IMG/VR virus record: IMGVR_UViG_3300027974_000020
Span: 105,198-169,197 of that record
Source of the DNA: a virus
Strand: one strand, 5' to 3'
Length of the DNA stretch: 64,000 nt
In this document: one piece after another, positions 3,261 to 30,228 of the stretch
How the letters are laid out: every line of letters starts with the position of its first letter
Numbering within the stretch: position 1 is the stretch's first letter
Program-made: the position numbers and the translations under genes
Notes under the pieces: model-generated
Told to the model about the DNA's origin: nothing
What the model saw: the letters and a program-made list of their open reading frames with translations, nothing else
Database searches by the model: none

Positions 3261-3331
3261 TAAAGAAAGATACCCTGGGGTCTTCGGACCCTGGGGTTCT
3301 TTTTTTATGACTAGGACAAAGGTCTTATGTC
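3261..3331 (+). promoter_or_regulatory. terminator + CTAG element, copy 2
   Basis: cTTCGg-loop hairpin, T-tract, then GACTAGGAC-AAAG-GTCTTATGTC. Confidence 0.8.
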
Positions 3332-3356
3332 AATACTCTCTAGGAGGGGAGTAGAT

Positions 3357-3626
3357 ATGAATATGAAAGACAAACTAATAATGGCAATAATTGCAGTATT
3401 ATCAGTGCTTGCAATTGTTAGCTTTGTAGATGCAAGTAACAACCCAGTATCCTGCCAAGTTGACAGTTTGGTAGCGACATATGGAGATACCTATTGGACA
3501 TTGAGCAGTGATGCTGGTTGTGTTGGTGGGTATGATAAGCAAAGTAGGGTTGGGCAGATAATTGATCTTAATGGAGGTTCTGCGGATCTCCGTCATGGTC
3601 AATTGGTAATATTCCCAACTAAGTAA
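3357..3626 (+). CDS. membrane-anchored LysM-domain protein (YneA/ChiZ-like architecture)
   Basis: N-terminal TM or signal peptide, then a GDTYWTLS...IIDLN...LRHGQLVIFP LysM pattern; AGGAGGGG SD. Confidence 0.75.
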   Translation: MNMKDKLIMAIIAVLSVLAIVSFVDASNNPVSCQVDSLVATYGDTYWTLSSDAGCVGGYDKQSRVGQIIDLNGGSADLRHGQLVIFPTK

Positions 3627-3644
3627 ATTAAGTAAGTAAACCCA

Positions 3645-3718
3645 AAAAGAATTCCCCGAGCTGGTACCCTCTGCCAGCTTGGGGTTTTCTTTTTATGACT
3701 AGAGCTCAGGCTTTAGTC
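3645..3718 (+). promoter_or_regulatory. terminator + CTAG element, copy 3
   Basis: CCCCGAGCTGG/CCAGCTTGGGG hairpin, T-tract, then GACTAGAGC-TCAG-GCTTTAGTC. Confidence 0.8.
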
Positions 3719-3830
3719 GGGCTATAAGCGTTACGCCCTGAAAGTAATGCACCGGTCGTTGGCTACCGTAAAGCTAACACCTGTTGCGCAATTTGGGACT
3801 TTCTCTCCCAAAAAAACAGGAGGAATACTA

Positions 3831-4154
3831 ATGATTACAATGATCATTATCGCAACACTCATGGTTGTGGCTGCAGTTGCAGTTACAGTCTGCGTGATGC
3901 AGCAAAAGGCAATCGTTCTGATCAATCAGATCAAGAACCTCATCGTTCAATTGAGCGAAGAGAAAGCAAAAGCAGCCAAGGTTCTTTCCGAAAAGGAACA
4001 AGAACTGAGGGAAGCCAAGGATACAGCACGCCGTCATTTAAATGATTGGAATGCTCTCTACTTGGAGAAAAGGGCAGCTGAAGCCAAAAAGGCAGAAGCA
4101 GCAAAGAAGACAGAAGCGAAAGCTACTGTAAAGAAGACCAAAACAACCAAATAA
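3831..4154 (+). CDS. membrane-anchored coiled-coil protein with Lys/Ala-rich tail
   Basis: AGGAGG SD before ATG 3831; N-terminal TM followed by a charged helical region. Confidence 0.75.
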   Translation: MITMIIIATLMVVAAVAVTVCVMQQKAIVLINQIKNLIVQLSEEKAKAAKVLSEKEQELREAKDTARRHLNDWNALYLEKRAAEAKKAEAAKKTEAKATVKKTKTTK

Positions 4155-4188
4155 GACAAATTAGGGAAAGTCCTAATTGCGCAACAAC

Positions 4189-4250
4189 AAAAGATGCCCT
4201 GGGGGTTAACACCCCTGGGGTTTTCTTTTTATACCTAGAACATAGGTCCT
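4189..4250 (+). promoter_or_regulatory. terminator + CTAG element, copy 4
   Basis: Hairpin, T-tract, then ATACCTAG-AACATA-GG. Confidence 0.7.
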
Positions 4251-4279
4251 TATAATAAGTGAAGGGAGGTGAAATAGAA

Positions 4280-4453
4280 ATGGAAAACGCTAGGAATGGC
4301 ATATTCCCACATAAGTGTGGATGGCCATCCTGTGAGTTTGTAGTGGAATTGGACGATGAGCCCAATTGCTTTACTCATTCACCAGACAGCGGCAGTTCCG
4401 AGGTCGGCTACTCTGCAAGGAGAGATGCTGAACGCGGAATCGTACGGTTCTGA
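4280..4453 (+). CDS. small Cys/His (putative zinc-binding) protein
   Basis: GGAGGT SD before ATG 4280; C-x4-C...C-x2-H. Confidence 0.65.
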   Translation: MENARNGIFPHKCGWPSCEFVVELDDEPNCFTHSPDSGSSEVGYSARRDAERGIVRF

Positions 4454-4520
4454 TGGGATGGCAGCCAACTGACTAAGAGTCGGGGCAGATGAATAGTGCC
4501 TGGCAACAGAAACTATCATG

Positions 4521-4588
4521 AAAGAATAATCTCAGGGGTTAGCATCCCTGAGATTTTCTTTTTATGACTAGGGAAAAGGTCTCTAGTC
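4521..4588 (+). promoter_or_regulatory. terminator + CTAG element, copy 5
   Basis: AATCTCAGGG/CCCTGAGATT hairpin, T-tract, then GACTAGGGA-AAAGG-TCTCTAGTC. Confidence 0.8.
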
Positions 4589-4682
4589 TGGTTAGCAGAC
4601 CATAATCTGTTTAGCCGTAGCTGTACATACGGTGCCAGCGTGATGGGCGCATCCCATCTTTATGATTTCTTAAGGAGGAATC

Positions 4683-4973
4683 ATGTTCGGCATCATATTG
4701 CTACAAAACTGGTTGACTTTTGCGATATTCGCAATTTTGATATCAGTCTCGGTAATGATCATTATCGAGGAAACAAAAGGTAAAGGTATCATTAACACTA
4801 TCCTATACACTTTAGGATTTGTGTCACTGTTGTCTTTATGGCCTGTATTTAATATCTATACAGCCATACCTATCACAAACGATAATAATTTATTATTTAT
4901 AATAGCTTTATTTACAACATATTTTGCTCTGGTATTTGCTGGAACAGAGTTGATGGATAAAGCTACAAAATAA
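4683..4973 (+). CDS. hypothetical membrane protein (3 TM)
   Basis: TAAGGAGG SD; hydrophobic segments. Confidence 0.75.
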   Translation: MFGIILLQNWLTFAIFAILISVSVMIIIEETKGKGIINTILYTLGFVSLLSLWPVFNIYTAIPITNDNNLLFIIALFTTYFALVFAGTELMDKATK

Positions 4974-5025
4974 TAAAAAACTAGAATACTTTAGTTGTAC
5001 AGAGCTAAAGTTTTCTTACCAAACT

Positions 5026-5090
5026 AAGAAGTCCTTGGGGTTAGCATCCCAGGGATTTCTTTTTTATGCCTAGTGGATAGGTCACTAGGT
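5026..5090 (+). promoter_or_regulatory. terminator + CTAG element, copy 6
   Basis: Hairpin with GTTAGCA loop (as in copy 5), T-tract, then CCTAGTGG-ATAGG-TCACTAGG. Confidence 0.8.
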
Positions 5091-5139
5091 AGGCAATCTT
5101 ATTATGCCTACAAATAATAAGAGGAAGGGGAGCCTCATC

Positions 5140-5325
5140 GTGTCTGACACCTTGAAGCGCTTTCCTACCCTGACCTTACAATGCGCAGACACAATCTGCT
5201 TCATTTGTAAGACAGAAACCAAAGTCAATGGGGATACCAACCCCTATGACCTTGGTTTTGCCAGGGTAGGTGGCAACTCCGCCAACGGGTACGAGATCTA
5301 TCACATCTCGTGCTGCAACGGCTGA
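5140..5325 (+). CDS. small putative zinc-binding protein
   Basis: AAGGGGAG SD before GTG 5140; CFIC...HISC. Confidence 0.6.
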   Translation: MSDTLKRFPTLTLQCADTICFICKTETKVNGDTNPYDLGFARVGGNSANGYEIYHISCCNG

Positions 5326-5385
5326 GTTAGCCTAATACTGGCCACCTGTGCCTGTCTCATAACTGGGGGACATTAAACTACTCAG

Positions 5386-5455
5386 TGAGAGGGTAGCCCA
5401 AAGCATTAGCTAGGGCTACCCTCTTTTTATATGACTAGGAGAAAGGCTTCTGGTT
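5386..5455 (+). promoter_or_regulatory. terminator + CTAG element, copy 7
   Basis: GAGAGGGTAGCCC/GGGCTACCCTCT hairpin, T-tract, then GACTAGGAG-AAAGG-CTTCTGGTT. Confidence 0.8.
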
Positions 5456-5483
5456 AAACCAAACATACAACAAAGGAGAAACC

Positions 5484-5753
5484 ATGCGTACATCACCACG
5501 CTGTGTTGGTATAGTAAAACCAACAAGTAGGCGAGTGTTAAAGAAGGGGTTGGAGAGGTATCCTCAGATAAAGGGGGATGTAACTCAACAACGGTGCTTA
5601 AAAAGTATCAACTGCCCACACCACAGGGTTGCTAATGCTAGAATTATGGAGCTTCCATTAGAAGAACCATATGTAGAGCTAACAAGAGAGCAAATAAGGC
5701 AATTGATTAACATCGGTTACATGGCTGAAACAGGCCGTCCATACTACTTATAG
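5484..5753 (+). CDS. hypothetical basic protein
   Basis: AAGGAG SD; 89-aa ORF. Confidence 0.65.
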   Translation: MRTSPRCVGIVKPTSRRVLKKGLERYPQIKGDVTQQRCLKSINCPHHRVANARIMELPLEEPYVELTREQIRQLINIGYMAETGRPYYL

Positions 5754-5777
5754 ACCATAGGTCAAAGGAGAATAACA

Positions 5778-6905
5778 ATGAAATCATTAAAGCGTTTATT
5801 AATAATCTCTACTGTTGCAATTTCTTTTATTGGGGTCAATGAAAGTTCTGCTTCAGCTAGAAATAACAAATGTGTAAAAGTTGGCACATTTAAAACGGCA
5901 GTAAAAGTTAAGTACGAATGCAAGAGATTGACCACAGGTCTCAGATGGGTAAAGGTACAAACAAAAGTTGTACCAACAACACCTGCTGAAGTTATAATAC
6001 CAATACCAACTGATTGGTCAAATATTGAAAAGTATGCACAAAACATACCATACGCAGCATGGAAGGCAAGTGTTGGCGCGATCACCACTGGTATGCCTCA
6101 GATGCCAACAGTGAATATCATTAATGGACCAAATGCCCTTATAGCTTATTCAACTCCGGAAGTTAAGATTAATTTAACATCACGTTTATTTTCATCTGCA
6201 AAGCAACTTTCGCAGGTAAATATTATGCGTTTTGGGTATGATGATATTGGATGGGCTAATTCAAAGTGGTTAGAGCAATTTAATGGCCAAGATAATTCTG
6301 TTCCAAGAGAAATATTCGATACGTGTAAAACTACCACGACATGTTGGGGTGGCATTTCGCGCAATACCAAAAGTGGAATAGCTTGGTTTGCTTTGGCAAC
6401 AATGAAAGATAATCTATCTGAACCTAAACTTGTAAACGGGACTAACTACGCGCACTCATATGCTCATGCAATCCAATACGCAGCACTGTCTGAAATACCA
6501 GCACAAAGACTGCCAAGATGGTTGCTTGAAGGAGTTGCTACTTATTCACAAGCTGCTGTTGAAGGCATGGTAAGTTTTGATTTATACAAGTCTGAACGCA
6601 CAAGAGAAACAGGAGGATTAAATAACTCTCTTGAATGGCTTGAATCATTTCTTGCCCCAACAGGCAATGATTGGTCTCATTGGAACAAATATACTGGTAA
6701 TGATTCTTGGAGAGTTTATGATGTTGGTTTTATGGCAACCGAAGCGTTAGTAGCCCTCAGAGGACCAAACACTGTAATGAGTTTGTATACAAAAGTAGGA
6801 AGTGGTCAAACTTTTGATCAAGCGTTTAATGAGCTATATGGAATCTCTTGGGCTGAAGCTCACAAGATAATTGCTCGTGTAATTTCCTTACAAATTAACA
6901 AATAA
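5778..6905 (+). CDS. secreted gluzincin-like protein, catalytic Glu apparently lost
   Basis: Signal peptide; HSYAH in place of HExxH, followed by PRWLLEGVA and a YDVG motif. Confidence 0.6.
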   Translation: MKSLKRLLIISTVAISFIGVNESSASARNNKCVKVGTFKTAVKVKYECKRLTTGLRWVKVQTKVVPTTPAEVIIPIPTDWSNIEKYAQNIPYAAWKASVGAITTGMPQMPTVNIINGPNALIAYSTPEVKINLTSRLFSSAKQLSQVNIMRFGYDDIGWANSKWLEQFNGQDNSVPREIFDTCKTTTTCWGGISRNTKSGIAWFALATMKDNLSEPKLVNGTNYAHSYAHAIQYAALSEIPAQRLPRWLLEGVATYSQAAVEGMVSFDLYKSERTRETGGLNNSLEWLESFLAPTGNDWSHWNKYTGNDSWRVYDVGFMATEALVALRGPNTVMSLYTKVGSGQTFDQAFNELYGISWAEAHKIIARVISLQINK

Positions 6906-6912
6906 TCTTATT

Positions 6913-6973
6913 AAAGAATAGAGGGTCCTTCGGGGCCCTTTTTTCTTTATGACTAGTGGATAGGCCACTAGTC
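6913..6973 (+). promoter_or_regulatory. terminator + CTAG element, copy 8
   Basis: GGGTCC-TTCG-GGGCCC hairpin, T-tract, then a perfect 9-bp stem GACTAGTGG-ATAGG-CCACTAGTC. Confidence 0.85.
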
Positions 6974-6993
6974 TTTAGTTAAGGAGAAGAGTA

Positions 6994-7320
6994 ATGAAAG
7001 AAATGGAATGGTGTGGATGCATGGATGTGCGTTCATGGAAAGATGGCTTTGCTGATATTTTTAGCAGAGAGTTAGTAGAAGGTAAAAGAAAAGGTGAGTT
7101 GTATGAATTGTTTGAAGTTAAAAGCTTTGAAGAATTTAAGGATGAGTTAAGTGATATTGCATGGGGTGTAGGACGTATTGTTGGTGGTTTGGTTGGTAAG
7201 CCATATGTACGGATTATTGGTGATGCAATACATTACAATAAGGTTGTTTCTCGTATGAATGAATATGGTTGTATGAGGAGCAAGCGATTTCTTATTAAGG
7301 GTGAATGTCCTAATAAGTGA
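6994..7320 (+). CDS. hypothetical protein
   Basis: TAAGGAG SD. EELSD-like DELSDI motif is reminiscent of MazG-like helical proteins (weak). Confidence 0.65.
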   Translation: MKEMEWCGCMDVRSWKDGFADIFSRELVEGKRKGELYELFEVKSFEEFKDELSDIAWGVGRIVGGLVGKPYVRIIGDAIHYNKVVSRMNEYGCMRSKRFLIKGECPNK

Positions 7321-7350
7321 TTTAAGTTAATTAGTAAATAATTGACGGGG

Positions 7351-7413
7351 TATGCCCCTAGGGTCGTTTGATCCTAGGGGTATATTTTTTATGCCTAGTG
7401 GAATGGCCGCAGG
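7351..7413 (+). promoter_or_regulatory. terminator + CTAG element, copy 9
   Basis: CCCCTAGGGTC/GATCCTAGGGG hairpin, T-tract, then GCCTAG-TGGAAT-GG. Confidence 0.75.
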
Positions 7414-7436
7414 TTATAGATTATAGGAGAAGAGAA

Positions 7437-7868
7437 ATGAAAGAGAAAGCAATTATAGTTGATATTGATGGTACTTTGTTTGAAGAGGTGCCAGGTTGGA
7501 CAATGGAGACTGATGCATGGTGGGTGGAAGAAACACTTAAGATGCGTGAGTTGAAAGTTGGAATTGGATTAATTAAAGTATTTAAGGAAATGGGATTTAA
7601 GTTGGTTTTCTTGACAGCAAGAGGACAAAGCTGCAAGAAGAATACTTTGATTAAGTTTAAGGAAGCTGGTATTGATAACTTGGTAGATTCGATGTGGCAC
7701 AGGCCAGTTAAGTGGAATGGCGTGGCACCAGTTGAATATAAGAAGTTCATGATGCAACGGATTATGAAAAAGTATGATGTTGTGTTTGCTATGGATGATA
7801 GCGACAAGAACTTGGAAATGTTTAAGGGATTGGGTATCAAGGTATTTGATGCAAAGAGGTGGTGGTGA
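7437..7868 (+). CDS. HAD-family phosphatase (PNK 3'-phosphatase-like)
   Basis: DIDGT motif I, LTAR motif II, K, and MDDS motif IV; AGGAG SD. Confidence 0.8.
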   Translation: MKEKAIIVDIDGTLFEEVPGWTMETDAWWVEETLKMRELKVGIGLIKVFKEMGFKLVFLTARGQSCKKNTLIKFKEAGIDNLVDSMWHRPVKWNGVAPVEYKKFMMQRIMKKYDVVFAMDDSDKNLEMFKGLGIKVFDAKRWW

Positions 7869-7890
7869 GGTTATTGATAAACCTCAGACC

Positions 7891-7951
7891 AAAGAAACTA
7901 GGGTCCTTCGAGGCCCTTTTTTCTTTATGACTAGGACACAAGTCTTAAGTC
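7891..7951 (+). promoter_or_regulatory. terminator + CTAG element, copy 10
   Basis: GGGTCCTTCGAGGCCC hairpin, T-tract, then GACTAGGAC-ACAA-GTCTTAAGTC. Confidence 0.8.
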
Positions 7952-7952
7952 T

Positions 7953-8001
7953 GTCTATTGGTAGACATAAACTTCATGACCCCACTATTGGTAGTAGGTG
8001 G
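7953..8001 (+). ncRNA. candidate pseudoknot leader RNA, copy B (shorter)
   Basis: GTCTA-TTGG-TAGAC, ATAAAC, TTCATGACCCC, then a hairpin. Confidence 0.5.
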
Positions 8002-8054
8002 CAAATCATACTACCAGGGCACAGCCTTCACTGTGACTAATAAAGGAGAATAAA

Positions 8055-8735
8055 TTGGAAATGAACGAAGAGCCCAAAGCAATGCCAAAGTGGTTGGGTA
8101 AATTCCCAGCCTACATCAAACAATTGTGGTTGGATTCAAACAAAATTGAACCCACACCACCAGTGGAACCATCACTGCCAGCAGAAGGCGAATTTCGTTT
8201 TCTGTTGATTCCACAAAATGACACAAGCAACTCCGAGGCGGTACCGATGTTGGTGCTCATCCAGAAAGTACTTCAAGATGGGTACTTCCAGGTAATGCTT
8301 ACTCATTGTGAAGATGCAATGCAAACATACTCTGATCTTTACGTCACTAGTGGCGAAACAGGTTTGGGGTATGGTGTTTTCATTAGCACCGCAATACAAA
8401 ATCAAGCTAACGTGAATTGCTTGAGCGAAACTGCAGTTGGTAAGTTGATTCCTTCAATGGTACGAGCTAGGGGTACATACAATTTTGGACCTAATGATGA
8501 GTGGCGCAGAGGACGTCGCTTTTCTTCAGATCGATTTGTTGCACAACTAGATCCACGTTGGAAGTTCGTTAATGAACAACTTACTGCAATGCAATACCTA
8601 CTGGGCGCATATGAAGATGAAGGCGATACTCGTGACTCTGAATTGAGCGCAAAACACCAAGCAGAAGACATGAAATCGTTTTACCAAGTTGACCGTGACA
8701 ATGGTGAACTTCTTCCATCGCAGAAAAACAACTAA
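8055..8735 (+). CDS. hypothetical protein
   Basis: AAGGAG SD; 226-aa ORF with a TTG start, or ATG at 8061. Confidence 0.7.
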   Translation: MEMNEEPKAMPKWLGKFPAYIKQLWLDSNKIEPTPPVEPSLPAEGEFRFLLIPQNDTSNSEAVPMLVLIQKVLQDGYFQVMLTHCEDAMQTYSDLYVTSGETGLGYGVFISTAIQNQANVNCLSETAVGKLIPSMVRARGTYNFGPNDEWRRGRRFSSDRFVAQLDPRWKFVNEQLTAMQYLLGAYEDEGDTRDSELSAKHQAEDMKSFYQVDRDNGELLPSQKNN

Positions 8736-8745
8736 GTAAGTAATA

Positions 8746-8800
8746 GGTCTGATTGGATCGACCTTAACTGTCCATGAACCAACCGTTAACCAAGAGGTTG
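8746..8800 (+). ncRNA. candidate pseudoknot leader RNA, copy C
   Basis: GGTC-TGATTGGATC-GACC, TTAACT, GTCCA (pairs with loop TGGAT), TGAACC, then a CAACC/GGTTG hairpin. Confidence 0.6.
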
Positions 8801-8843
8801 TAATTCACATGGTTATTTAATCACAAACAAAAGGAGAAGGATA

Positions 8844-9362
8844 ATGTCAGATAACAAAAACAAATTCCAGTCAAGGCTGGATGCAATCTCAAAGGTTGCA
8901 ATTGTTTTACATGCCTTTGGCACATGGTATGAACTACAAATTGAATCCAGTGACAAAAATCGGTTGACTGATGGGGCACTGAAGTATACACAGCATGTTA
9001 GCTTGTTCCCAAGCAGCAGAACATTGTATTCTTTTGTTGGTGTTTCAGAAGATGGTGCAATTGTCAATGGTTTCATGCATGATGGAACAAGCAACGACAA
9101 TGGTGGTTATGGCAGTGATTCGTTTGAATTGACGATGAAAGATGGATCACACAAAGTCATAACAGGACCATGGAGCTCAAGACCAGGAGTTCATACTGTT
9201 AACAGCGGTATTCAATACACTGAAGTTAGAGTTGGTTATGGTATGTATGGATTCTCAAGGGAATTCATTGAAGCCATAATTGATCGATTTAACCTCGATG
9301 TAAATCTTGACTCAGTAACTTTGGAAGACAAAGAAATTAATCTGAAAGTAACACCTAAGTAA
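8844..9362 (+). CDS. hypothetical phage protein
   Basis: AAGGAG SD; 172 aa with GYG...GPWSS motifs. Confidence 0.7.
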   Translation: MSDNKNKFQSRLDAISKVAIVLHAFGTWYELQIESSDKNRLTDGALKYTQHVSLFPSSRTLYSFVGVSEDGAIVNGFMHDGTSNDNGGYGSDSFELTMKDGSHKVITGPWSSRPGVHTVNSGIQYTEVRVGYGMYGFSREFIEAIIDRFNLDVNLDSVTLEDKEINLKVTPK

Positions 9363-9400
9363 GTAGCAGCGGTGAGCCTGGAGTTAGGTTTCAGGCTAAG

Positions 9401-9458
9401 GAAATTAGGGTCCTTCGGGGCCCTTTTTTCTTTATGACTAGGAATAAGGTTCCAAGTC
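9401..9458 (+). promoter_or_regulatory. terminator + CTAG element, copy 11
   Basis: GGGTCCTTCGGGGCCC hairpin, T-tract, then GACTAGGAA-TAAGG-TTCCAAGTC. Confidence 0.8.
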
Positions 9459-9459
9459 C

Positions 9460-9513
9460 GTCTGATTGGATCGACGTAAAATGTCCATGACCCCTGGTTA
9501 TTGGTTACCCAGG
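9460..9513 (+). ncRNA. candidate pseudoknot leader RNA, copy D
   Basis: GTC-TGATTGGATC-GAC, GTAAAAT, GTCCA, TGACCC, then a CCTGG/CCAGG hairpin. Confidence 0.6.
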
Positions 9514-9576
9514 ACAACTACGTAACCAGAGAGACACTATCTCTCTATAATAAAAAGTGTAATAAGGAGGAATGTT

Positions 9577-9966
9577 ATCAAAGAGCAAATCAACAAAATC
9601 AACCAGGTCACTGATGGTGACAAGGTCAAGTGCGAGCCGTGCTTTGGCACAGGTAAGTACATGAGCAAAACCGTCATCGATGGAACATGTTTCCGTTGCA
9701 AAGGCACTGGTTCAGAAAAAGCAATGTCAATCAAGCAATACAATTTCATCAAGGAATTGTTCATGGCATTGGTGAAAATGAACATCATTGTGAAAGAGAA
9801 CAATGAATGGCATGAAATGGTTAACACCATGAACCAACACAAGGATGGAATTACATTGCGGTCATCCAAGTGGGCATCAGACAAGATTGAGGAATACAAG
9901 GCTCGCAAGAACCGTGTCCTCAAACCTAAGAGGCCAGTGTATTCAGTTACCCACTGTGGAATTTGA
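9577..9966 (+). CDS. DnaJ-type CxxCxGxG zinc-finger protein with putative ATC start
   Basis: TAAGGAGG SD, 6 nt, then ATC in frame with ORF 9661. The extension supplies the first CEPCFGTG, which pairs with CFRCKGTG. Confidence 0.7.
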   Translation: MKEQINKINQVTDGDKVKCEPCFGTGKYMSKTVIDGTCFRCKGTGSEKAMSIKQYNFIKELFMALVKMNIIVKENNEWHEMVNTMNQHKDGITLRSSKWASDKIEEYKARKNRVLKPKRPVYSVTHCGI

Positions 9967-10070
9967 GCAGTGGGATGAACCACAGTGGGTAACTGAAGAA
10001 TGGAAAGCTGGAGAAGATGCAGAGGCTGACATATACTAGCACCGCCAGGTGTATAGGTAGTCATCAAGTC

Positions 10071-10131
10071 AAAGAAGAGGGGGTCCTTCGGGGCCCTCTT
10101 TTCTTTTATGCCTAGGACACAGGTCTCAGGC
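10071..10131 (+). promoter_or_regulatory. terminator + CTAG element, copy 12
   Basis: GGGTCCTTCGGGGCCC hairpin, T-tract, then GCCTAGGAC-ACAG-GTCTCAGGC. Confidence 0.8.
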
Positions 10132-10157
10132 TAACACTCTCTAGGAGGGGAGTAATC

Positions 10158-11609
10158 ATGAAGAATAAACCAACAACAAACAAGGAGGAAACGGTGTATA
10201 AAGACACTGTCTACGCAAAACTGAGAAGGGCACTTTACAATGTCATTCTCGAAGGTAAATTCATGCAAGAAACTCAATGGGACGAGAATGGACGATGCCA
10301 CATGGTTCAGACATTTGGTGACCGTGGAATTATTGCAACAATGCAACGAAAAGCAAATAACAAAGGATGGGTTGTATTCTTTACTTTGTGCATGTACAAG
10401 CACGAGCAAAATCACATTCCATTCATGCGTGATTTGAAAGTTAGATTGACTATCAATGAAACTCCATCTGGAGTAAGATTATTGTGGTTTGTTAATGGTA
10501 AGCCACAATGGATGGTAGAAAGTAGTCAAATGGCTTTCTCAAATAAATTCCATCATACTGGACATATAGTTCAAGAAGTTATTAATCAGATCAAGAGTAT
10601 ATATTCTCCTGAAGATTTTATACCGATCTTGAAGTACATGCAAAATCCAACATGCAAAGAGTATACTTTGTATGGCCTTAACCAAAGGTGGATGAAAAAG
10701 TTATCAGGTGGAACAAACCCTAGGCAAATCTTGAATAAAATCTATGGCAAAGATGGGCAGGATGGGTTGAGCAGAAATGCTTTTGGTTCAAATATTGGCA
10801 AAAAGAGTTTTGCTACATTTGCTATAGCAGCTGAGCTAGTGCGATATTTGAAATCATTTCCTACATCATTCTTTGATAAAATCATTCTTGATGACTTTGC
10901 AGTACAAGATATTGCATACTTGGGGATGATGTATCAAGATGTAACTTACATCCAATATTTCATTAAGTACTTTAATCACAGTAAAATCCAACAAGATTTT
11001 ATTAATGCGATTAATAACTTTGAAATGTATCCACATTCTGATTATGACATTTCAGATGCTACAGAACGTTTCTTTAGGATGAGCATTTGGCAGGAAGCAC
11101 GTGATACCGGCAGGATGTTCAAGGAAATAAAGAACAGAGCTGTTCGGAGAAACATCATTGCACTTAAAGGCACGGTTCAAGAAACCCATGACCTTGTCAC
11201 TATCGAGAATGCAAAGCTAGCTCGAGAAGATAAGCAAATCAAATACAGTGATAAGAGCCTTATCCTGGATGGTCAACAGATAACAGATAATATTATTTCT
11301 GTTCTTCCGAAGACAACGTTTGATTTAATATTATGGGGTTCACAACAGCACAACTGCATAGGTAGCTATGGAGATCGTGTTGCTCGTGGCACAGGTGCGA
11401 TTGTTGTTGGATTCAAAGATGTGACAACAGATACTTGGGTCGGCCATGCTGAACTCAATAACTATTTCAACAGCTTTGGAAGTTCTTGGACAATCATGCA
11501 GTTGAGGGGCAAATATAACTCAAACCTTGATGAGTCAGATGAAACTACTATTCGTTTGTTTCTGGACAACATACTCAATGCTTGGAATGAAGAGTTAGTA
11601 TTGCCATAA
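10158..11609 (+). CDS. PcfJ-domain protein
   Basis: C-terminal HD...LPKT..DL..WG..QHNCIGSY...QLRGKYN pattern typical of PcfJ-like domains. Confidence 0.75.
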   Translation: MKNKPTTNKEETVYKDTVYAKLRRALYNVILEGKFMQETQWDENGRCHMVQTFGDRGIIATMQRKANNKGWVVFFTLCMYKHEQNHIPFMRDLKVRLTINETPSGVRLLWFVNGKPQWMVESSQMAFSNKFHHTGHIVQEVINQIKSIYSPEDFIPILKYMQNPTCKEYTLYGLNQRWMKKLSGGTNPRQILNKIYGKDGQDGLSRNAFGSNIGKKSFATFAIAAELVRYLKSFPTSFFDKIILDDFAVQDIAYLGMMYQDVTYIQYFIKYFNHSKIQQDFINAINNFEMYPHSDYDISDATERFFRMSIWQEARDTGRMFKEIKNRAVRRNIIALKGTVQETHDLVTIENAKLAREDKQIKYSDKSLILDGQQITDNIISVLPKTTFDLILWGSQQHNCIGSYGDRVARGTGAIVVGFKDVTTDTWVGHAELNNYFNSFGSSWTIMQLRGKYNSNLDESDETTIRLFLDNILNAWNEELVLP

Positions 11610-11628
11610 AGTTTTACCTCAGGTAAAT

Positions 11629-11703
11629 AAGAGAGAAGGGTCCTTCGGGACTCTTTTCTTTTATGCCTAGTTCACAGGTCTCAGATCACTGAGGTCGCTA
11701 GGC
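11629..11703 (+). promoter_or_regulatory. terminator + CTAG element, copy 13 (upstream of RNA polymerase gene)
   Basis: cTTCGg hairpin, T-tract, then GCCTAG-TTCACA-GG. The partner CTAGGC is at 11698-11703, beyond an inserted hairpin. Confidence 0.8.
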
Positions 11704-11739: not shown

Positions 11740-14331
11740 ATGGAAGACCAACCGGTCAAACCGCCCGATGCAGCGGCCAATGCATCAACAAAGGAGAAGA
11801 AGATGCCAAAAGGTATCATCACTTTCCTGAAGGGGCGCTTTCGCGTTCTGACAAATAATCCAACTCCGAAAGAGGAGCAGGCATACAATTTGTCTCAGGA
11901 AACCAATAAGCCAGTCCCGTTTGGACGGATCAAGACTGTTACTGGATACAATTATGTCCAGGACGTCTACGCTGTTCAGACTGGTGACTTCACCTACTCC
12001 TTGTTGGAGAACAAACTTACTAAGCGGGGAATTAAGTTCCGTTTAGGAGTCGTCTCTAACAAGGATCTATCAGAGCTCGTAATCAAACACGAACTGTTCA
12101 GTCTTAATGACATGATCAGTAAGTGCAGGTTCGCATGGGCTAACGCATCATACACCTTCTTCCTGGAGGTTCAAGACAGTAAAGAAGCATCAAGCTTTGA
12201 TCTGTCTGATCTTGGGTTGGAGGTCTATGACTTCAAGAAGACCAGCAAACGTTTGCAGGAAGTGACTCGTATCACTCAAATGCATTCGTCTGGTCCGATT
12301 GGCAAACTTGATTATCGCATGTTGGAAGATCTTCCTGGTGAAGAACTTGCATATGATGGTCCAGTATTTGTCAGCGACTCATTTGCAGTGCGTTCTTGCT
12401 TTAGTATGACTGATGGTCCTGCTAAGAACAAGCACATTGCAATGATCAATCGCGGTAAGATCGGTCCAATGATTGGTCGTATTCTGATGGATCAAGGTGA
12501 AGTTAAGGGCCTTGTCCACGTTGTTCCACGACAACAGCTAGGTGCGGATGTGGTTTTCCACAAATCTGCTCTGAAGCGAGAGTTAAAGACTGACGATGGA
12601 CGTTGGCACTATACTGCCTTCAAACACAAGAACCTCCACACTGCTATGTGGGATATGCAAACTATGTTCAATAACCATACCTGGTTAATGACCAAAGAGC
12701 AATTCACACTGGACATGGAGTCTGTTATCACTGACTTTAACAAGTCTGTTGAGAATGGACAGCTTCCTGACTGGATTATCCACCAGGAAACTGACGGGCA
12801 CAAGGATGACTCAGCTCCACAAGTAGAGCATGTGACATCTGGCTGGAAGAAGAGTTACATCCGCTGGCAACAAGCTGGTTTGGATGTAACTGCATCTAGC
12901 AACCTCGTCTACATGGCTTTCGGATCATTGCTGAACCAAATGCGTTCTGCTTTGAAACGAAACACGTGGTGGGTTCCCATCTCTAATGCCTTTACGGCGA
13001 CAGTAACCACCTTCGATGCTTTGGAGGTCATGGGTAACTTTGAGCTGCCTCAGCACAAACGAGACATGGTGTTCTTTGATGAACGCTTTGGCTGTATTGT
13101 GCCGACTAAGCGGTTCATTGAGACTGCTGACCTTCATGACACGTGGGATCAGGACGGTGACCAAGCTAAGTTCATCCGCATTAAACTGTGGAGTTCTTCG
13201 CTTGTTATGAGCCTTGATGGATACAACCATCCGGAACTCAGGGAAACATATGTCATTCCTGCTGATTTGGTAGTGCCAAGCACTCCTGAAGAGGCAATTG
13301 ATATGTGTGTCGTTATCCGTTCACCAAACGGTCCTGGCGGTTACTCTATCGAACGGTTTGATGCTGAAACGATGCCATGGCTTCGTGTAGCGGAAGATCG
13401 TGTACAGGTAATTGATCTGGCCAAAGCACCAGCTGCAATGAGCACTTTGCTCGTTACAACTGAATGCGGTCAGATTAATAGCTCCACTACCTACAGCAAG
13501 GAATTGTTCAACCGGGATCATGCTCTTAATATGATCTTGGCACAGATGAATAACCCTGGTGTTGGTAGGTACGCTAATCTCATTATGGTTTGGGCTGCAA
13601 CATTTGGTCCAAGCTATCCTGATAAGTTGCCTGCAATTGGTAACGATGTCATTGACTGTGTTCAACAGACCGCAGACCTTGGTTCATTTGTTCAATTGCA
13701 AAGTGACTACTCAGAAATGGCTGAAAGCATTGCTCAGGCGATCATTGACAGCGGTTGTGGTATTGACCGTTATGTTCTTGAGACCCGGTTCCCTGCACTC
13801 AGCGATGAGACACGCCAAATGCTGGTAGATATTGCAGTAGACGGTCAGTTTACTGAGATGTACAACGCATACAATCAAACTATTACAAAGGTGCAAAATA
13901 TCGCATCCAAGGGTAGCTTTGATCTGCGTTTGACATCTGACACTCGTAACAAAGTGTACAATGCAATTCCAGCTATGAGGGAGTCAACCTCTGTTTGGTG
14001 CCGTGGCATCTGGTCAAAGTATGAACGTGAACTCTCAAGGGTTGACGGTAAGTACTCTGAACTGTCCAAGAATACCAATCGCTTTGTAAAGATGTCTGCT
14101 GTTGCACAACGCACAGAAGAAATCTCTACCATCATTGGTGCACTGTTGGATGAAGTCAAGGCAACATCACATCCTGAGCTCTATGCTCTTGCTATCTACC
14201 GTTGGATCATTGATCCGGAACTGACTCGCAGTAAGTATGGCGTGTCTGACCGTATCATCTTCCAGAACGGAATAGACGGACAAGAGACCATCATGGATCT
14301 CATTATCACAGCAATCAAGGACCTGAAGTAA
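11740..14331 (+). CDS. single-subunit two-barrel RNA polymerase (YonO / RNAi-RdRP-like), paralog 1
   Basis: DGPVFVS, GRILMDQGEVKGLV..SALK (DPBB-A lysines), DQDGD (13147-13161), IRSP, GVGRYAN and IDC motifs. Confidence 0.8.
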   Translation: MEDQPVKPPDAAANASTKEKKMPKGIITFLKGRFRVLTNNPTPKEEQAYNLSQETNKPVPFGRIKTVTGYNYVQDVYAVQTGDFTYSLLENKLTKRGIKFRLGVVSNKDLSELVIKHELFSLNDMISKCRFAWANASYTFFLEVQDSKEASSFDLSDLGLEVYDFKKTSKRLQEVTRITQMHSSGPIGKLDYRMLEDLPGEELAYDGPVFVSDSFAVRSCFSMTDGPAKNKHIAMINRGKIGPMIGRILMDQGEVKGLVHVVPRQQLGADVVFHKSALKRELKTDDGRWHYTAFKHKNLHTAMWDMQTMFNNHTWLMTKEQFTLDMESVITDFNKSVENGQLPDWIIHQETDGHKDDSAPQVEHVTSGWKKSYIRWQQAGLDVTASSNLVYMAFGSLLNQMRSALKRNTWWVPISNAFTATVTTFDALEVMGNFELPQHKRDMVFFDERFGCIVPTKRFIETADLHDTWDQDGDQAKFIRIKLWSSSLVMSLDGYNHPELRETYVIPADLVVPSTPEEAIDMCVVIRSPNGPGGYSIERFDAETMPWLRVAEDRVQVIDLAKAPAAMSTLLVTTECGQINSSTTYSKELFNRDHALNMILAQMNNPGVGRYANLIMVWAATFGPSYPDKLPAIGNDVIDCVQQTADLGSFVQLQSDYSEMAESIAQAIIDSGCGIDRYVLETRFPALSDETRQMLVDIAVDGQFTEMYNAYNQTITKVQNIASKGSFDLRLTSDTRNKVYNAIPAMRESTSVWCRGIWSKYERELSRVDGKYSELSKNTNRFVKMSAVAQRTEEISTIIGALLDEVKATSHPELYALAIYRWIIDPELTRSKYGVSDRIIFQNGIDGQETIMDLIITAIKDLK

Positions 14332-17428: not shown

Positions 17429-18472
17429 ATGTCAACACTAAGCAATATGTTTGGTATCAATAGCGATGATCTCGCTCTTGTTACCGAAAATCCCGATGCG
17501 TTCAAAAGCCAAAGCAATACCACGCTACTCCGTAAGGATAAGCGGGTAAAGGCAAAAGGCTCGATCAACAACATCGAAATCCCAACCTACGTCACACTTG
17601 AGAGTGCCTTCTGGACTCGTCTCACTGTGCGTGACCACTACATCAACCGTGCAGGCGCAGAAGCTCGTACCAGCCAAGTATTTGGTGGTGTCTTCAAGCC
17701 AGTCAAAATGAAGGTTGAAGTTGAAATCAACGGTAAAACTATGCTCTTGCAAGAGCTCATCCGCGACCTCATCGCTGAAACCTCTGCAGGCAAGTCAGCC
17801 GACGAAATCAATCGTATCATTGAAGATACAAATCTTCTTCGTGGCTTTGCCGATGGTATGCCGTTGATGTTCCAACAAATGGGTGCCAGCGAAAACGGCT
17901 TCCAGCATGCAATTGAAATCTTCCGTTCCGCAGGAGCAGTAGATGACCTTGCTTCATTGAAGGGTAACAGCCGATTCCACACCTGCTATGACATGAAACA
18001 GAAACAGGGTCTTGAAGTTGTAGCCTTTGAACTTGGTTCAGCAGACCGCACACAATCAAAAACAGGACAGGGCTTTACTGACATCATTGATGCAGTAATC
18101 AGCAATCTTGTTCGTGTCATCGGTCACAAAACAACTGCTGCTATTCTTCGTAAAGAAATTGAAGAAAAAGTTGCAAGTCTTTCGCAAGGTGACATCAAGG
18201 CTAAGCAGACTAAGATTGATTCTGAATTGGCAATGAGCCGTCAGTATCCAGTCATTTGGTCTGGTGCTGCGCGTCAGAAAGACACAACAGAAACTGGCGA
18301 TATGGTTACCCGTGATAAGTACAATGCTGTCAATGCACCTTGTGGTCGTTGGACTGTACTTCTCAATGGTCAAACAGAAGATCTGGATGTATGGTCAAAT
18401 TCGACCAAGCAACCAATCAATGCTGTAACCACCGCAACTGCAGTTGTAGATACAACGGTTAAACCGTTCTAA
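17429..18472 (+). CDS. hypothetical protein, 347 aa
   Basis: Long ORF followed by a long hairpin; no recognisable motif. Confidence 0.8.
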   Translation: MSTLSNMFGINSDDLALVTENPDAFKSQSNTTLLRKDKRVKAKGSINNIEIPTYVTLESAFWTRLTVRDHYINRAGAEARTSQVFGGVFKPVKMKVEVEINGKTMLLQELIRDLIAETSAGKSADEINRIIEDTNLLRGFADGMPLMFQQMGASENGFQHAIEIFRSAGAVDDLASLKGNSRFHTCYDMKQKQGLEVVAFELGSADRTQSKTGQGFTDIIDAVISNLVRVIGHKTTAAILRKEIEEKVASLSQGDIKAKQTKIDSELAMSRQYPVIWSGAARQKDTTETGDMVTRDKYNAVNAPCGRWTVLLNGQTEDLDVWSNSTKQPINAVTTATAVVDTTVKPF

Positions 18473-21191: not shown

Positions 21192-21671
21192 ATGACTATC
21201 TTAGAACAAGAAAGTAAACTTAAGTCGTTAGGCACAAGAGTGCCTTTGACGGATGATCCTAAAATTAGGGGCATCTTAGCAGTCCATTACAGCCTTTGGC
21301 AGGGCCGCGAATCTATTGAGCATAATGGCAAACAACTGACGGTTTACCAGCCGGCACATAAAGGATATTCATCCGTAGTTATCCCTTCAGAATCGGGTTA
21401 TAATTTTCTGTGGATTACACAGAATATGGAACCCTCTAAAGATAGCTACGGTTCAATGGCTATCCGTAGATCTCAACAGCTTGGGGACAACAAAATGATC
21501 ACCTGGATTGTAGACAATACTGGTGGTAAATTTGTTTATGTAGGTAGCATACATACTACCCATTACTTCAACGGAGACCAAGATGTTATAATCGAAAGAT
21601 ACGTAGAAGGACAGACTGAAGTAGTCTACACAAACATGCCGTTCTATTATCAAGCTAAATCCAAATATTAA
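21192..21671 (+). CDS. hypothetical protein
   Basis: GAAGGA SD; 159 aa. Confidence 0.7.
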   Translation: MTILEQESKLKSLGTRVPLTDDPKIRGILAVHYSLWQGRESIEHNGKQLTVYQPAHKGYSSVVIPSESGYNFLWITQNMEPSKDSYGSMAIRRSQQLGDNKMITWIVDNTGGKFVYVGSIHTTHYFNGDQDVIIERYVEGQTEVVYTNMPFYYQAKSKY

Positions 21672-21764
21672 AATTGTTATACCCCTAAATTTATATAGGT
21701 TTGCATGCCAACCCTATATAATAATATATGAGTTGTAACAATAAAAAAAACATTATCAACAAAC

Positions 21765-21793
21765 TTGCTTAATTTTCATTTTTATACTATAAT
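21765..21793 (+). promoter_or_regulatory. sigma70/SigA-type promoter
   Basis: TTGCTT-17 nt-TATAAT upstream of ORF 21844. Confidence 0.65.
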
Positions 21794-21843
21794 ATTTATA
21801 TACCCTTATACACCTAAATAACCCACAGAAAACGGAGATTGAA

Positions 21844-22059
21844 ATGGCTAAGCCATCAAAAACCCCACTTATTAATCAATTCATTAATTCCAATACAGAC
21901 AAAATTTATTCCACAAAAGAAATGTGTGTACAAATTGGCGTTAGCCTTCCAACACTTCTTAGTTATATTAAGAGCAACACAGAGCGTTTTGAACTTGTTC
22001 AATACGGTGTTTACAAGATCGTTAAGAGTGGTCAACAACCTATTGCAGTTGAGATTTAA
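21844..22059 (+). CDS. small winged-HTH DNA-binding protein
   Basis: STKEMCVQIGVSLPTLLSYI HTH followed by a GVY wing. Confidence 0.7.
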   Translation: MAKPSKTPLINQFINSNTDKIYSTKEMCVQIGVSLPTLLSYIKSNTERFELVQYGVYKIVKSGQQPIAVEI

Positions 22060-22233
22060 TAGTTAGTTTATTTAAAAATAAAGTTACTATTATTGCATCA
22101 TCTATAAACATAGACGGTGCGCAGTCAAGTCTGCTTTAAAACAAGATCTTTTAAGTTAAAAGATTAAGTAGACCCAACCAAGGAGTATTGGTATAAATAC
22201 TTACAATAACAAGAAATGTGATATAATAAATAC

Positions 22234-22406
22234 AATGCCCGTAACATGCGGGCAGGGAAATAATCCCTAACGTAACAGAGTAATACTGTGAAGTCGGAGA
22301 TGGCTAACCTGCCAACTGTGACGGGCATTTCGTATCTGTCCGCACATCTTCGGTTTCGCAACCTGCGCCGTACTAATGGTGTTTCGCAACACCAGACAAA
22401 GACGAA
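22234..22406 (+). ncRNA. candidate structured 5' leader of the transglycosylase gene
   Basis: TGnTATAAT at 22219-22227. Stem AATGCCCGT/ACGGGCATT starts at the predicted TSS. A second domain carries two GTT-TCGC-AAC hairpins and ends at the SD. Confidence 0.45.
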
Positions 22407-22422
22407 AAGGAGCGAACACGAA

Positions 22423-23013
22423 ATGCAAGTAAAATACAAAAAAGCAATGCTAGTATCTATTGTTGCAGGAATATTCCTGTCTTCTGGTATAGCCAATTCT
22501 AGTGCTACTAGGATTGAACAACCAGTACAGGAACCTCCCAGTACCGTCAAGGTACTAACTGCACCCGATAGATTAGACAAATATAATGCAATTGATTCAA
22601 TTGTGTTTAAACATGGAGATATATCTTGGCTTCCATTATTAGCCAAAGAGGCTGGTTGGCCCCGTAAAACGTGGGACAAACTAGGCGATATTATTCTCCG
22701 TGAATCAGGTGGATGCCCCAATCGAATTGGTGGTTCCATAGTTGACAAAAATTGTAATGTAGTTGGGCACTCAGGTGCTGCAAATAAATCCGATTCAGGA
22801 TTGCTACAAATCAATGGAGTCAATTGGGATCCCAAAAGAGATGGCAGACAACTACTTTGTGCAGATTATAGAATCTGTACTCAAGAACAACTCCTGGATC
22901 CGGTTACCAACTTAGTTGCAGGCTATGTCCTGTATCAAAAATCTGGTTGGGATCCATGGGACCCATGTGCATGGGGGCCTAGTTTTGCCCATAGGTGTAA
23001 AACTGGCAAATAA
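22423..23013 (+). CDS. secreted lytic transglycosylase (SLT-like)
   Basis: Signal peptide; RESGG catalytic Glu, DSGLLQIN, LLDPVTN and W.PW motifs. Confidence 0.85.
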   Translation: MQVKYKKAMLVSIVAGIFLSSGIANSSATRIEQPVQEPPSTVKVLTAPDRLDKYNAIDSIVFKHGDISWLPLLAKEAGWPRKTWDKLGDIILRESGGCPNRIGGSIVDKNCNVVGHSGAANKSDSGLLQINGVNWDPKRDGRQLLCADYRICTQEQLLDPVTNLVAGYVLYQKSGWDPWDPCAWGPSFAHRCKTGK

Positions 23014-23034
23014 TTACAAATAAATATTATGAAT

Positions 23035-23064
23035 AAAAGGGGGGGCCTTGTGCCCCTCCTTTTT
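23035..23064 (+). terminator. intrinsic terminator
   Basis: AAAAGGGGGGGC-CTTGT-GCCCCTCCTTTTT. Confidence 0.7.
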
Positions 23065-23111
23065 GTTAATTCAAAACAAAGCATCCCATCGAACTAAAGA
23101 AAGGCTAGTTC

Positions 23112-23534
23112 ATGCTACTAACTATGATGTTAATCTTAGCTATCACTTCAACTCTAGTAGAGTTGTTGATTGCTTCTAAAGTTAAATGGTGGAGACAGAA
23201 GTCTCACGACAGCAAACTGTTCAACATGTTGAACTCGCTATTCCTATCATTCTTGATAGGTTTAGCATTCAGTGCCTCTGGCTTAATTGCCATGGGTGCT
23301 GGCGTAATATCAACCGTGTTGTCCGTTCCCGGCTATCAATTCCTGTATTGGAATTATGATGGCCCAATGGCACAAAAACATGGTGGTAATATGATGTTAC
23401 ATTTGAAATCTAAATGGTTTCAAACAATTAAGGATTTCTTTACACTTGTGTATAAAATCCTGAGAATAATCACATTCCCAATTTGGGGAACTAGATGGGC
23501 AGTAACTAAACTAAAGACAATCAAAACTAAATAA
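23112..23534 (+). CDS. hypothetical membrane protein
   Basis: Multiple hydrophobic segments. Confidence 0.65.
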   Translation: MLLTMMLILAITSTLVELLIASKVKWWRQKSHDSKLFNMLNSLFLSFLIGLAFSASGLIAMGAGVISTVLSVPGYQFLYWNYDGPMAQKHGGNMMLHLKSKWFQTIKDFFTLVYKILRIITFPIWGTRWAVTKLKTIKTK

Positions 23535-23562
23535 AAAAATCGAGTAGACCGTAGGAGGTAGC

Positions 23563-26124: not shown

Positions 26125-26179
26125 TAACTAACAGTGTGAGTATATTCTGCTCACACTGTTAGTATAAATAAAGAAAGGA

Positions 26180-26566
26180 GTGCTCGTGAGCACTACTACA
26201 TCATATACCAATACACATCCAATTGATGAAATGTTTAATAATATTCGTAATATCATTTCATCTCAACCTATTAGGTCAGATTATATTCCATATGTTGAAG
26301 AAAGAAATTCTGTTTCTTACAAACTTGGAAAATATAGCCGCAAAACTGTATCTTACTTTAAGAGATCAGAGACAAAAGCCTCTATGTTAATTGCAACATG
26401 GGCTGTAGAGAGTTTAGCATACGCTCTTACATTCCTAGTTCTAGTAACTTCTGGAGCTTTTATCACTGCAGCTCTTTGGACAGCTCTTTATGGGTATATT
26501 TCATATGCATTCTTTGCTATGTTGCGCGACGCAGCTGTAGCAAATGTAATTTTTACAAAGAAATAA
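26180..26566 (+). CDS. hypothetical membrane protein
   Basis: AAGGAG SD; two C-terminal TM segments. Confidence 0.65.
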   Translation: MLVSTTTSYTNTHPIDEMFNNIRNIISSQPIRSDYIPYVEERNSVSYKLGKYSRKTVSYFKRSETKASMLIATWAVESLAYALTFLVLVTSGAFITAALWTALYGYISYAFFAMLRDAAVANVIFTKK

Positions 26567-26576
26567 TTACACAACA

Positions 26577-27179
26577 ATGAACTATTCTCAAATTAAATCC
26601 TATGTTTCTGATCCAGAACAAGAGATATTGTCAATAAAATCTTCTTTTGAAGAACACGTATCTTTAGCTGGAAAAGAAACTTATCGCCCAAGAGTTATGT
26701 TCTATAACTTTTTTGGCGAAAAACTTTTTGGCATAGTCTCTAGGCCATACGTTGATCAAACTGATTATATTAGTTCTATCGCAGAAATGATGTATTCTTA
26801 TACTGCTTTAACTGCATCTTCTGCTGTTATAGTTTTAGAAAGTAACATCACTAAAAATGGAAACCTAATTGGCAGTTGTCTAAATGCTTATTTGGTATCA
26901 TCAGATACTGCTCACGCAGTAACCATTCCTTATGATCATGCCCCAGATAATAAAGTTATTTGGAAATCTTCTGAAGAAATTATTAAAGAAGTAGATATGA
27001 ATACAAATTCAGGCATGCCTTTGGAAATGCTAGAATTATCATATGCTTTTTCGCATATTGATGATGCTCCATTTTCAATGCCAGAATTGTTATCGTATTA
27101 TACTTCTATGGGGTTTATATTTAAATCCTTTAAGAAACTTAATTATACATACATAGATTATGCAGAAAATAATACATAG
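26577..27179 (+). CDS. hypothetical protein
   Basis: 200-aa ORF in an operon. Confidence 0.65.
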   Translation: MNYSQIKSYVSDPEQEILSIKSSFEEHVSLAGKETYRPRVMFYNFFGEKLFGIVSRPYVDQTDYISSIAEMMYSYTALTASSAVIVLESNITKNGNLIGSCLNAYLVSSDTAHAVTIPYDHAPDNKVIWKSSEEIIKEVDMNTNSGMPLEMLELSYAFSHIDDAPFSMPELLSYYTSMGFIFKSFKKLNYTYIDYAENNT

Positions 27180-27351
27180 ATTATGTCTTACTCAAACTCC
27201 CCAGAAAAAAAGCAAAAGCTTTATTGCTCAATTAAAGATAAAACTGTTATAGTGTACACTAAAACAGAACCACTTACCGATGAACAATTAGAAGACATGA
27301 TGGTAGATTCTTTACCACATGGATATACGGAACCTTTTATCTAAGGAAAAC

Positions 27352-29043: not shown

Positions 29044-29046
29044 TAA

Positions 29047-29508: not shown

Positions 29509-29553
29509 AATAAAAAAATAGGGTTCGTCAGAATTCCTATAAAGGAGACATTC

Positions 29554-29778: not shown

Positions 29779-29783
29779 CATTA

Positions 29784-29869: not shown

Positions 29870-29890
29870 CATTAGATAGAAAGTTGAGTT

Positions 29891-30220: not shown

Positions 30221-30228
30221 AAAATTTA

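Follow-up and report, generated by a model that had tools for sequence, protein, structure and literature searches.

The window analysed here is a 64,000-nucleotide stretch of viral DNA, the right-hand 64 kb of an IMG/VR phage contig of 169,197 bp (estimated to be 80% complete), and one of its genes, hereafter gene A, very probably encodes a single-chain RNA polymerase (RNAP) that shares the catalytic core of the cellular enzymes. Judged from a structural model, its fold class and chemistry appear to be those of the known two-barrel single-chain RNAPs. Gene A is not the sole enzyme of its kind in this phage, since a second, very distant paralogue, gene B, is also encoded. On balance, we think it probable that A is one of two phage-encoded, sigma-independent transcriptases of a jumbo phage resembling Bacillus phage 0305phi8-36. 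Positions below are those of the window unless stated otherwise.

11740-14331, + strand: gene A (P0001), a single open reading frame (ORF) of 863 aa
23563-26124, + strand: gene B (P0189), 853 aa; its metal loop is D-E-D-D, and it has an RSPNG motif too

The fold of protein A was assessed with an AlphaFold2 model built from 33 sequences (pLDDT 86.8, pTM 0.83). In a Foldseek search of the PDB, the top 25 matches were all single-chain two-barrel RNA polymerases, headed by maize RDR2 (ZmRDR2, E 2e-7), QDE-1, AtRDR2, P74-26 gp62 and P32 gp64, with P23-45 gp96 and crAss phi14:2 gp66 next. VIA-align, an aligner independent of Foldseek, placed the same proteins first when 48,161 chains were ranked:

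7w84, maize RDR2: Z 12.7, 556 residues
7y7p, QDE-1: Z 9.0, 621 residues
8f5m, P74-26 gp62: Z 8.8, 406 residues
8h2n, P23-45 gp96: Z 7.5, 312 residues
6vr4, phi14:2 gp66: Z 5.5, 496 residues

Predicted-structure collections returned similar proteins, namely a fungal RNA-dependent RNA polymerase (RdRP) cluster in the ESM Atlas (TM 0.53 over 588 residues) and, in BFVD, P23-45 gp64 and an annotated phage RdRP; language-model features of A likewise point to PF05183 clusters. The proposal of an earlier note on this DNA, that the gene encodes a single-subunit two-barrel RNA polymerase, is therefore supported at the level of fold, the best matches by two aligners being only two-barrel single-chain RNAPs. 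The best of these, Neurospora QDE-1 and plant RDR2 (2J7N, 7Y7P, 7W82, 7W84; PF05183), align over 556-621 residues and share with A the domain order of basic helix, lysine barrel and aspartate barrel, as well as a barrel 1 with one aspartate and three basic residues, a three-aspartate loop and an R-S-P loop. These elements of protein A are encoded as follows:

12238..12270, + strand: basic helix before barrel 1, K167-x2-K170-R171-x2-E174-x2-R177 (helix 168-176 in the model)
12277..12624, + strand: barrel 1 (double-psi beta-barrel (DPBB) 1, beta-like), residues 180-295, carrying D206-G207, R247-x8-K256-G257 and K279
12976..13419, + strand: barrel 2 (DPBB2, beta'-like), residues ~413-560, placed by whole-protein alignments to RDR2 and QDE-1
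13135..13161, + strand: metal-binding loop H466-x3-D470-Q-D472-G-D474, its three aspartates invariant
13318..13341, + strand: R527-S-P529-N-G-P-G-G, with an invariant R-x-P, 53 residues after the metal loop
13543..13578, + strand: conserved Q602-x2-N-P-G-x-G609-x3-N613, a helix-loop-helix (model helices 592-603 and 609-622), taken in the earlier note as bridge-like

Along the protein, the motifs run D206-G207-x3-V211-S212, R247-x8-K256-G257 and S276-x2-K279, and then D470-Q-D-G-D474, R527-S-P529, G607-x-G609-x3-N613 and I638-D639. The motif list of the earlier note is thus borne out in content and order, apart from a miscounted R-x6-KG that is in fact R-x8-KG, and the lysine barrel that it called DPBB-A is DPBB-B/DPBB1 in the nomenclature of Chaban et al. 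2024 and of the QDE-1 paper. In the alignment of 33 sequences (29-95% identity), D206, G207, R247, K256, G257, D470, D472, D474, R527, P529, N530, G609 and N613 are invariant. A superfamily alignment of 61 sequences, reaching down to 15% identity, leaves K170, R171, G207, K256, K279, D470, D472, D474, R527, P529, G609, D639 and D837 invariant; D206 (in this wider alignment), K167 and R177 are nearly so, and R247 is invariant or nearly. The DxDGD metal loop that had been noted earlier thus keeps all three aspartates throughout both alignments. Since key residues of the motifs are invariant across homologues down to 15% identity, they represent more than a chance resemblance.

Eight residues have been described as invariant in all two-barrel polymerases: three aspartates, an R-x-P, one further aspartate and two lysines (Ruprich-Robert and Thuriaux, PMC2919709). 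In QDE-1, D709 together with D1007/1009/1011 binds two cations, R738, K743, K767 and an auxiliary helix (R671) hold product and nucleoside triphosphate (NTP), and the Pro-gate loop R962-S963-P964 senses the 2'-OH (PMC9508822). Judged by sequence, the conserved residues of A appear to mirror both the eight invariant residues and the QDE-1 contacts, and from order, spacing and conservation we infer the following counterparts:

A D206: QDE-1 D709
A R247: QDE-1 R738
A K256: QDE-1 K743
A K279, 23 residues after K256: QDE-1 K767, 24 after K743
A K167/K170/R171 helix: QDE-1 auxiliary helix with R671
A D470/472/474: QDE-1 D1007/1009/1011
A R527-S-P529: QDE-1 R962-S963-P964

The basic helix of A would probably correspond to the product-binding auxiliary helix of QDE-1, D1AH. 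We propose that the gene A product is an RNA-making nucleotidyl transferase, a single-chain two-barrel enzyme whose catalytic set is complete. If it works as QDE-1 and cellular RNAP do, D470/D472/D474 of barrel 2 and D206 of barrel 1 would hold two Mg ions, R247, K256 and K279 together with the K167/K170/R171 helix would bind the 3' end of the RNA and the phosphates of the NTP, and the R527-S-P529 loop would gate the NTP and sense 2'-OH groups.

Paralogue B retains all of these motifs when aligned with A by motif, and the two proteins find each other by BLASTP (E 2e-6, 639 columns, 18% identity). More than 226 homologues of B were recovered. Both genes lie in the non-structural + strand block, and A and B occur together in all 4 of the complete genomes that carry A, with B usually 9-10 kb downstream. 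Between the same genomes B is 61-69% identical, compared with 37-43% for A. The midpoint root of the family tree separates A from B, which makes the duplication an ancient one. Having two paralogous RNAPs in one genome, the phage resembles those with virion/non-virion RNAP pairs (phiKZ, AR9 and P23-45). A published precedent for such a pair exists in Thermus phage P23-45, in which gp96 and gp64 are two anciently duplicated RNAP paralogues of one phage that also carries phage-specific promoter motifs and unusual terminators near its early genes (Chaban 2024, PMC10770324). The non-virion P23-45 gp64/P74-26 gp62 and the virion, tape-measure-fused gp96 (8F72, 8F5M, 8H2N) share the fold of A (Z 8.8 and 7.5), and the source phage likewise has terminators and candidate promoter motifs near early genes. 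A and B both lack a fusion to a virion protein; they show no sequence similarity to the Thermus phage enzymes and belong to a different phage lineage, which is jumbo myovirus-like. Crass-like phi14:2 gp66 (6VR4) is again a two-barrel single-chain phage RNAP, matched over 496 residues; it differs from A in its ~2,180 residues, its packaging in the virion, a much weaker structural match and the absence of any sequence relation. Between A and B (17429-18472, + strand) lies a 347-aa ORF that has no Pfam, PHROG or PDB match and is kept at 33-69% identity in all relatives, being better conserved than A; its language-model features weakly indicate a capsid fold of the HK97 type (GP7), a surprising thing to find in a non-structural block.

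The source is an uncultured phage of ~200 kb, with complete relatives of 205-231 kb in IMG/VR. A 2,206-aa virion protein on the same contig shares ~31% identity with virion proteins from 0305phi8-36 and jumbo phages like it, which places the phage in that broad lineage and makes 0305phi8-36 its nearest cultured relative by this protein. A crAss-like assignment was rejected on the same grounds, as the giant virion protein matches 0305phi8-36-type jumbo phages; in addition, the contig has no DxDGD motif besides that of gene A. In 0305phi8-36, a monocistronic gene for a putative RdRP-like RNAP sits among short early transcripts, together with phage-specific promoter candidates and no sigma factor (PMC2147016). 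The product of that gene, gp99, has the same fold class as A, as does YonO of SPbeta, and its monocistronic-type setting in a comparable early region, its phage-specific promoter candidates and the lack of a sigma factor all resemble the situation of A; 0305phi8-36 has one such gene and the source phage two.

The genomic setting also supports a role in transcription. A search for Sigma70_r2 in four complete relatives found none. These relatives encode their own Pol III alpha and DnaB, so the role of replicative DNA polymerase is already filled, and on this ground A or B as the replicative DNA polymerase was rejected. We consider that A and B would synthesise RNA rather than DNA, presumably on a DNA template, and that they might divide labour over time, as in P23-45 and phiKZ.

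Candidate signals for such an enzyme lie directly upstream of gene A, in an array of repeated elements:

3272..11670, + strand: array of 11 composite units, each with a terminator hairpin and T-run followed by ATG(A/C)CTAG and a hairpin that covaries
11630..11692, + strand: last array copy, hairpin plus T-run plus ATGCCTAG, ending 70 nt before the gene A start codon

Each unit comprises a GC-rich terminator hairpin, a T-run and ATG(A/C)CTAG, and then a second hairpin, 8-10 bp in length, with a covarying stem and an A-rich loop that ends in GG. The ATG(A/C)CTAG motif occurs 13 times (3.9 expected), always on the + strand, and terminator-like sites number 38 (13.8 expected); sigma-70-like sites in the region are at the chance level (44 vs 46.5 expected). 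Folding gave the second hairpin a mean z of -3.6 and a greater stability on the + strand (-9.6 vs -7.2 kcal/mol); it is formed by 20 of the 25 copies examined, the copy before A (11663-11692; in a relative, L022 9978-10007) not being among them. Each array unit is followed by a small gene, by a PcfJ-like gene or by gene A itself. The PcfJ-like gene (PF14284, E 2e-11; 10158-11609, + strand) lies directly upstream of A, and a counterpart precedes A in three relatives as well (L018, L015 and L022; 25-44% identity). In relatives whose A is only 37-43% identical, 7-8 copies of the 11-nt core are found within 10 kb upstream of A, so that the placement of the gene at the end of a putative promoter array, suggested in the earlier note, can be restated as A being the last unit of a repeated element array conserved in relatives. 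That the element is strand-specific, immediately follows terminators and is kept in phages with such divergent A proteins was counted in favour of a transcriptase, and it may be that one of A and B reads the ATGMCTAG elements found ahead of the early cassettes and of gene A.

A number of observations weigh against a transcriptase of this kind, beginning with the lack of a sequence link to any characterised polymerase. Protein A matched nothing in Pfam (E up to 1), PHROGs or PDB sequences, and the 61-sequence family profile likewise found nothing among PDB sequences, so that in contrast to their fold, A and QDE-1/RDR2 have no similarity in sequence; A is, moreover, a phage gene without an RNAi context. 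The PF05183 profile did not match G000-G004, while the same search scored 0305phi8-36 gp99 at E 1e-20, and in this respect gp99 differs from A, B and their relatives. The family profile found nothing in 0305phi8-36, and hhalign of the family alignment A2 with gp99 aligned 21 columns at the metal loop only, at a probability of 0.4%. The assignment to a YonO/QDE-1 class made in the earlier note accordingly holds as a fold class and not as sequence-level membership of PF05183.

The second barrel counts on the same side. Barrel 1 (residues 180-296) is matched at Z 4.6-5.3 by isolated DPBB domains, among them VAT-N, designed DPBBs and barrels from formate dehydrogenase, and the first of the two double-psi barrels that the earlier note anticipated in the predicted structure is thereby accounted for. 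When barrel 2 was tested as a domain by folding residues 400-600 alone (pLDDT 87.9), Foldseek returned no match and VIA-align only weak ones (Z 2.0-2.4), 6 of 10 being beta'-type RNAP barrels (phiKZ nvRNAP, ASFV, Sulfolobus, plastid PEP, gp96 and gp62). This implies that the second barrel is very divergent, being identified via whole-protein alignments only. Alignments to gp62 and gp96 extend to residues 666-736, and long helices follow barrel 2 in the model, in the part where a two-barrel polymerase would have its bridge helix and trigger loop. The weak stand-alone match would also suit a protein that has the fold without polymerase activity and serves a structural or binding role; we regard this as very improbable, because the acidic and basic active-site residues are all invariant at only 15-20% overall identity, a pattern unexpected for a dead enzyme.

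The active site itself departs from the canonical arrangement in two respects. In most of the superfamily the metal loop reads H-G-G-W-D-x-D-D, a residue fewer than in D-x-D-x-D, and the canonical-looking DxDGD is confined to the A clade and a second small clade, both of them nested within D-x-D-D sequences. The R-S-P motif, moreover, follows the metal loop, by 53 residues in A and by ~24 in B, a non-canonical position that is a further point against the proposed role. Elsewhere it precedes the loop, by 43 residues in QDE-1, by 42 in 0305phi8-36 gp99, which has the canonical order of R-S-P and then DxDGD, and by 35 in E. coli beta'. A plain swap of barrel halves, as in a circular permutation, does not fit B, where a single hairpin or ~24 residues separate the loop from R-S-P. 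Alternatively, R-S-P-N-G-x-G-E could, from its sequence, be the equivalent of the beta' segment L-S-P-A-N-G-E-P, 23 residues after the loop.

Genome context adds further points of this kind. Good extended -10 sequences precede several downstream genes, so host RNAP clearly has some role. Gene A also lies behind an element that it might itself read, in which case another polymerase must make the first transcript. Furthermore, distant relatives are fused to a PIF1 helicase, NADAR or DUF4326, an arrangement that would fit roles on single-stranded DNA (ssDNA) templates or in counter-defence equally well. These distant members (L034, L035 and P0129, P0167, P0144, P0049) carry the PIF1-like helicase, NADAR or DUF4326 as an N-terminal fusion and have Macro and HAD/PNKP-like genes among their neighbours, which together suggests a link to ADP-ribosylation counter-defence cassettes.

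One such alternative is that A (or B) is an RNA polymerase acting on ssDNA or RNA and not driven by promoters, either primase-like at the replication fork or, as QDE-1, on ssDNA exposed by a helicase. Its nearest folds, QDE-1 and RDR2, do copy ssDNA or RNA, an N-terminal PIF1-like helicase is the classic helicase-primase layout, an SNF2/ResIII helicase gene lies ~1.2 kb downstream of B, and the greater + strand stability of the array hairpins is as expected of a single-stranded signal. The four complete relatives, in addition, have Pol III alpha and DnaB, but DnaG_N, Prim-Pol, Toprim, Toprim_2 and Toprim_4 were not found in them. However, an ORF of 324 aa situated between Pol III alpha and DnaB in one of the relatives, G003 (L036 4908-5882, - strand; G003:C1:11907-12881), gives two independent weak, sub-threshold matches to the small subunit of archaeo-eukaryotic-type (AEP) primases, PF01896 at E 7e-4 and PriS (PDB 1zt2) at E 0.77. 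Because these weak matches agree, a divergent primase is probably present, and a primase role of A or B was downgraded. With A and B far from the replication module as well (~140 kb in G003) and the helicase fusions confined to distant clades, we consider this alternative unlikely.

The same fusions bear on another alternative, in which A would be an accessory early or counter-defence enzyme, making decoy or regulatory RNA or acting on modified nucleic acid, with general transcription left to host RNAP. This would agree with the position of A at the end of a small early-type cassette array beside the PcfJ-like gene, with relatives that are fused or adjacent to ADP-ribose-reversing domains (NADAR, DUF4326, Macro), with the faster evolution of A than of B and with the host-type extended -10 promoters that occur elsewhere. 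It is nevertheless rather improbable in our judgement, given that all complete genomes examined (4/4) keep both A and B, that a very large family keeps the catalytic set in full and that these phages encode no sigma factor that could redirect host RNAP, as judged by the Sigma70_r2 search of the four complete relatives.

Returning to a pair of transcriptases, we can offer a more specific scheme, which is possible but distinctly tentative. A and B would belong to a large branch of two-barrel polymerases wired unlike every characterised member, with the Pro-gate after the metal loop and D-x-D-D as the ancestral loop, and in these jumbo phages the two enzymes would drive a transcription cascade that does not depend on the host. 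One of them would recognise the conserved, terminator-linked ATGMCTAG hairpin elements, perhaps as a signal in the single-stranded + strand, and thereby express the early cassettes and the other paralogue, while the second would read a late motif such as TACTATAA. Across the whole contig, many structural genes of the minus strand have TACTATAA / TTACTAT(A/T) at 30-60 nt upstream (for example at genome positions 48658, 52418, 52745, 54631, 66874, 66899, 79893 and 86521 on the minus strand, to the left of the window), and 8 of the 21 copies of TACTATAA fall in the intergenic 6.5% of the genome. We regard the motif as a candidate for a late promoter that differs from the ATGMCTAG element.

The family to which A belongs is large. 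Metagenomic protein collections contain 77 close matches to A, all labelled "hypothetical", and A-like sequences form at least 115 clusters at 50% identity. In UniProt, reached through the BFVD search, the family is represented by two uncharacterised "uncultured Caudovirales phage" proteins, and neither A nor B had a tblastn match in 50,697 GenBank phage genomes. No family name was found in the literature or databases; the family may be among the 23 two-barrel families of Chaban et al. 2024.

The cellular transcription enzyme has its minimal relatives in the single-chain two-barrel RNA polymerases. To our knowledge, only a handful of them have been studied, namely QDE-1/RDR2, YonO, crAss gp66 and P23-45 gp64 and gp96. 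The present family is thus of interest as one that is large yet invisible to Pfam, PHROGs, PDB sequence searches and GenBank phage genomes, and that breaks with two traits so far regarded as universal, namely how long the metal loop is and where the Pro-gate loop lies. Should the enzymes be active, it would follow that the ancient active site can be rewired, that an entire group of environmental jumbo phages transcribes itself with two such enzymes, and that an 863-aa polymerase comes with a conserved candidate promoter/terminator cassette.

Further features of the window and contig were recorded alongside these results. The GC content is 0.39-0.46 over positions 1-26000, which hold the cassette array and both polymerase genes, compared with 0.27-0.36 over 26000-62000, the remaining + strand block. 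Seven tRNA genes, all on the + strand, lie within 20900-59954 (Arg-tct, Leu-taa, Asn-gtt, Lys-ttt, Met-cat, Thr-tgt and Gly-tcc), and at 39055-44696 (+ strand) a JAB-domain protein (PF14464) and an AAA ATPase are the only two Pfam matches seen there. Outside the window, at genome positions 21350-31864 on the - strand (L003 1350-11861), a giant ORF of 3,503 aa matches phrog_20474 (annotated as endolysin, E 5e-124), and further giant virion-type ORFs of 2,206, 1,921 and 1,509 aa lie near it.

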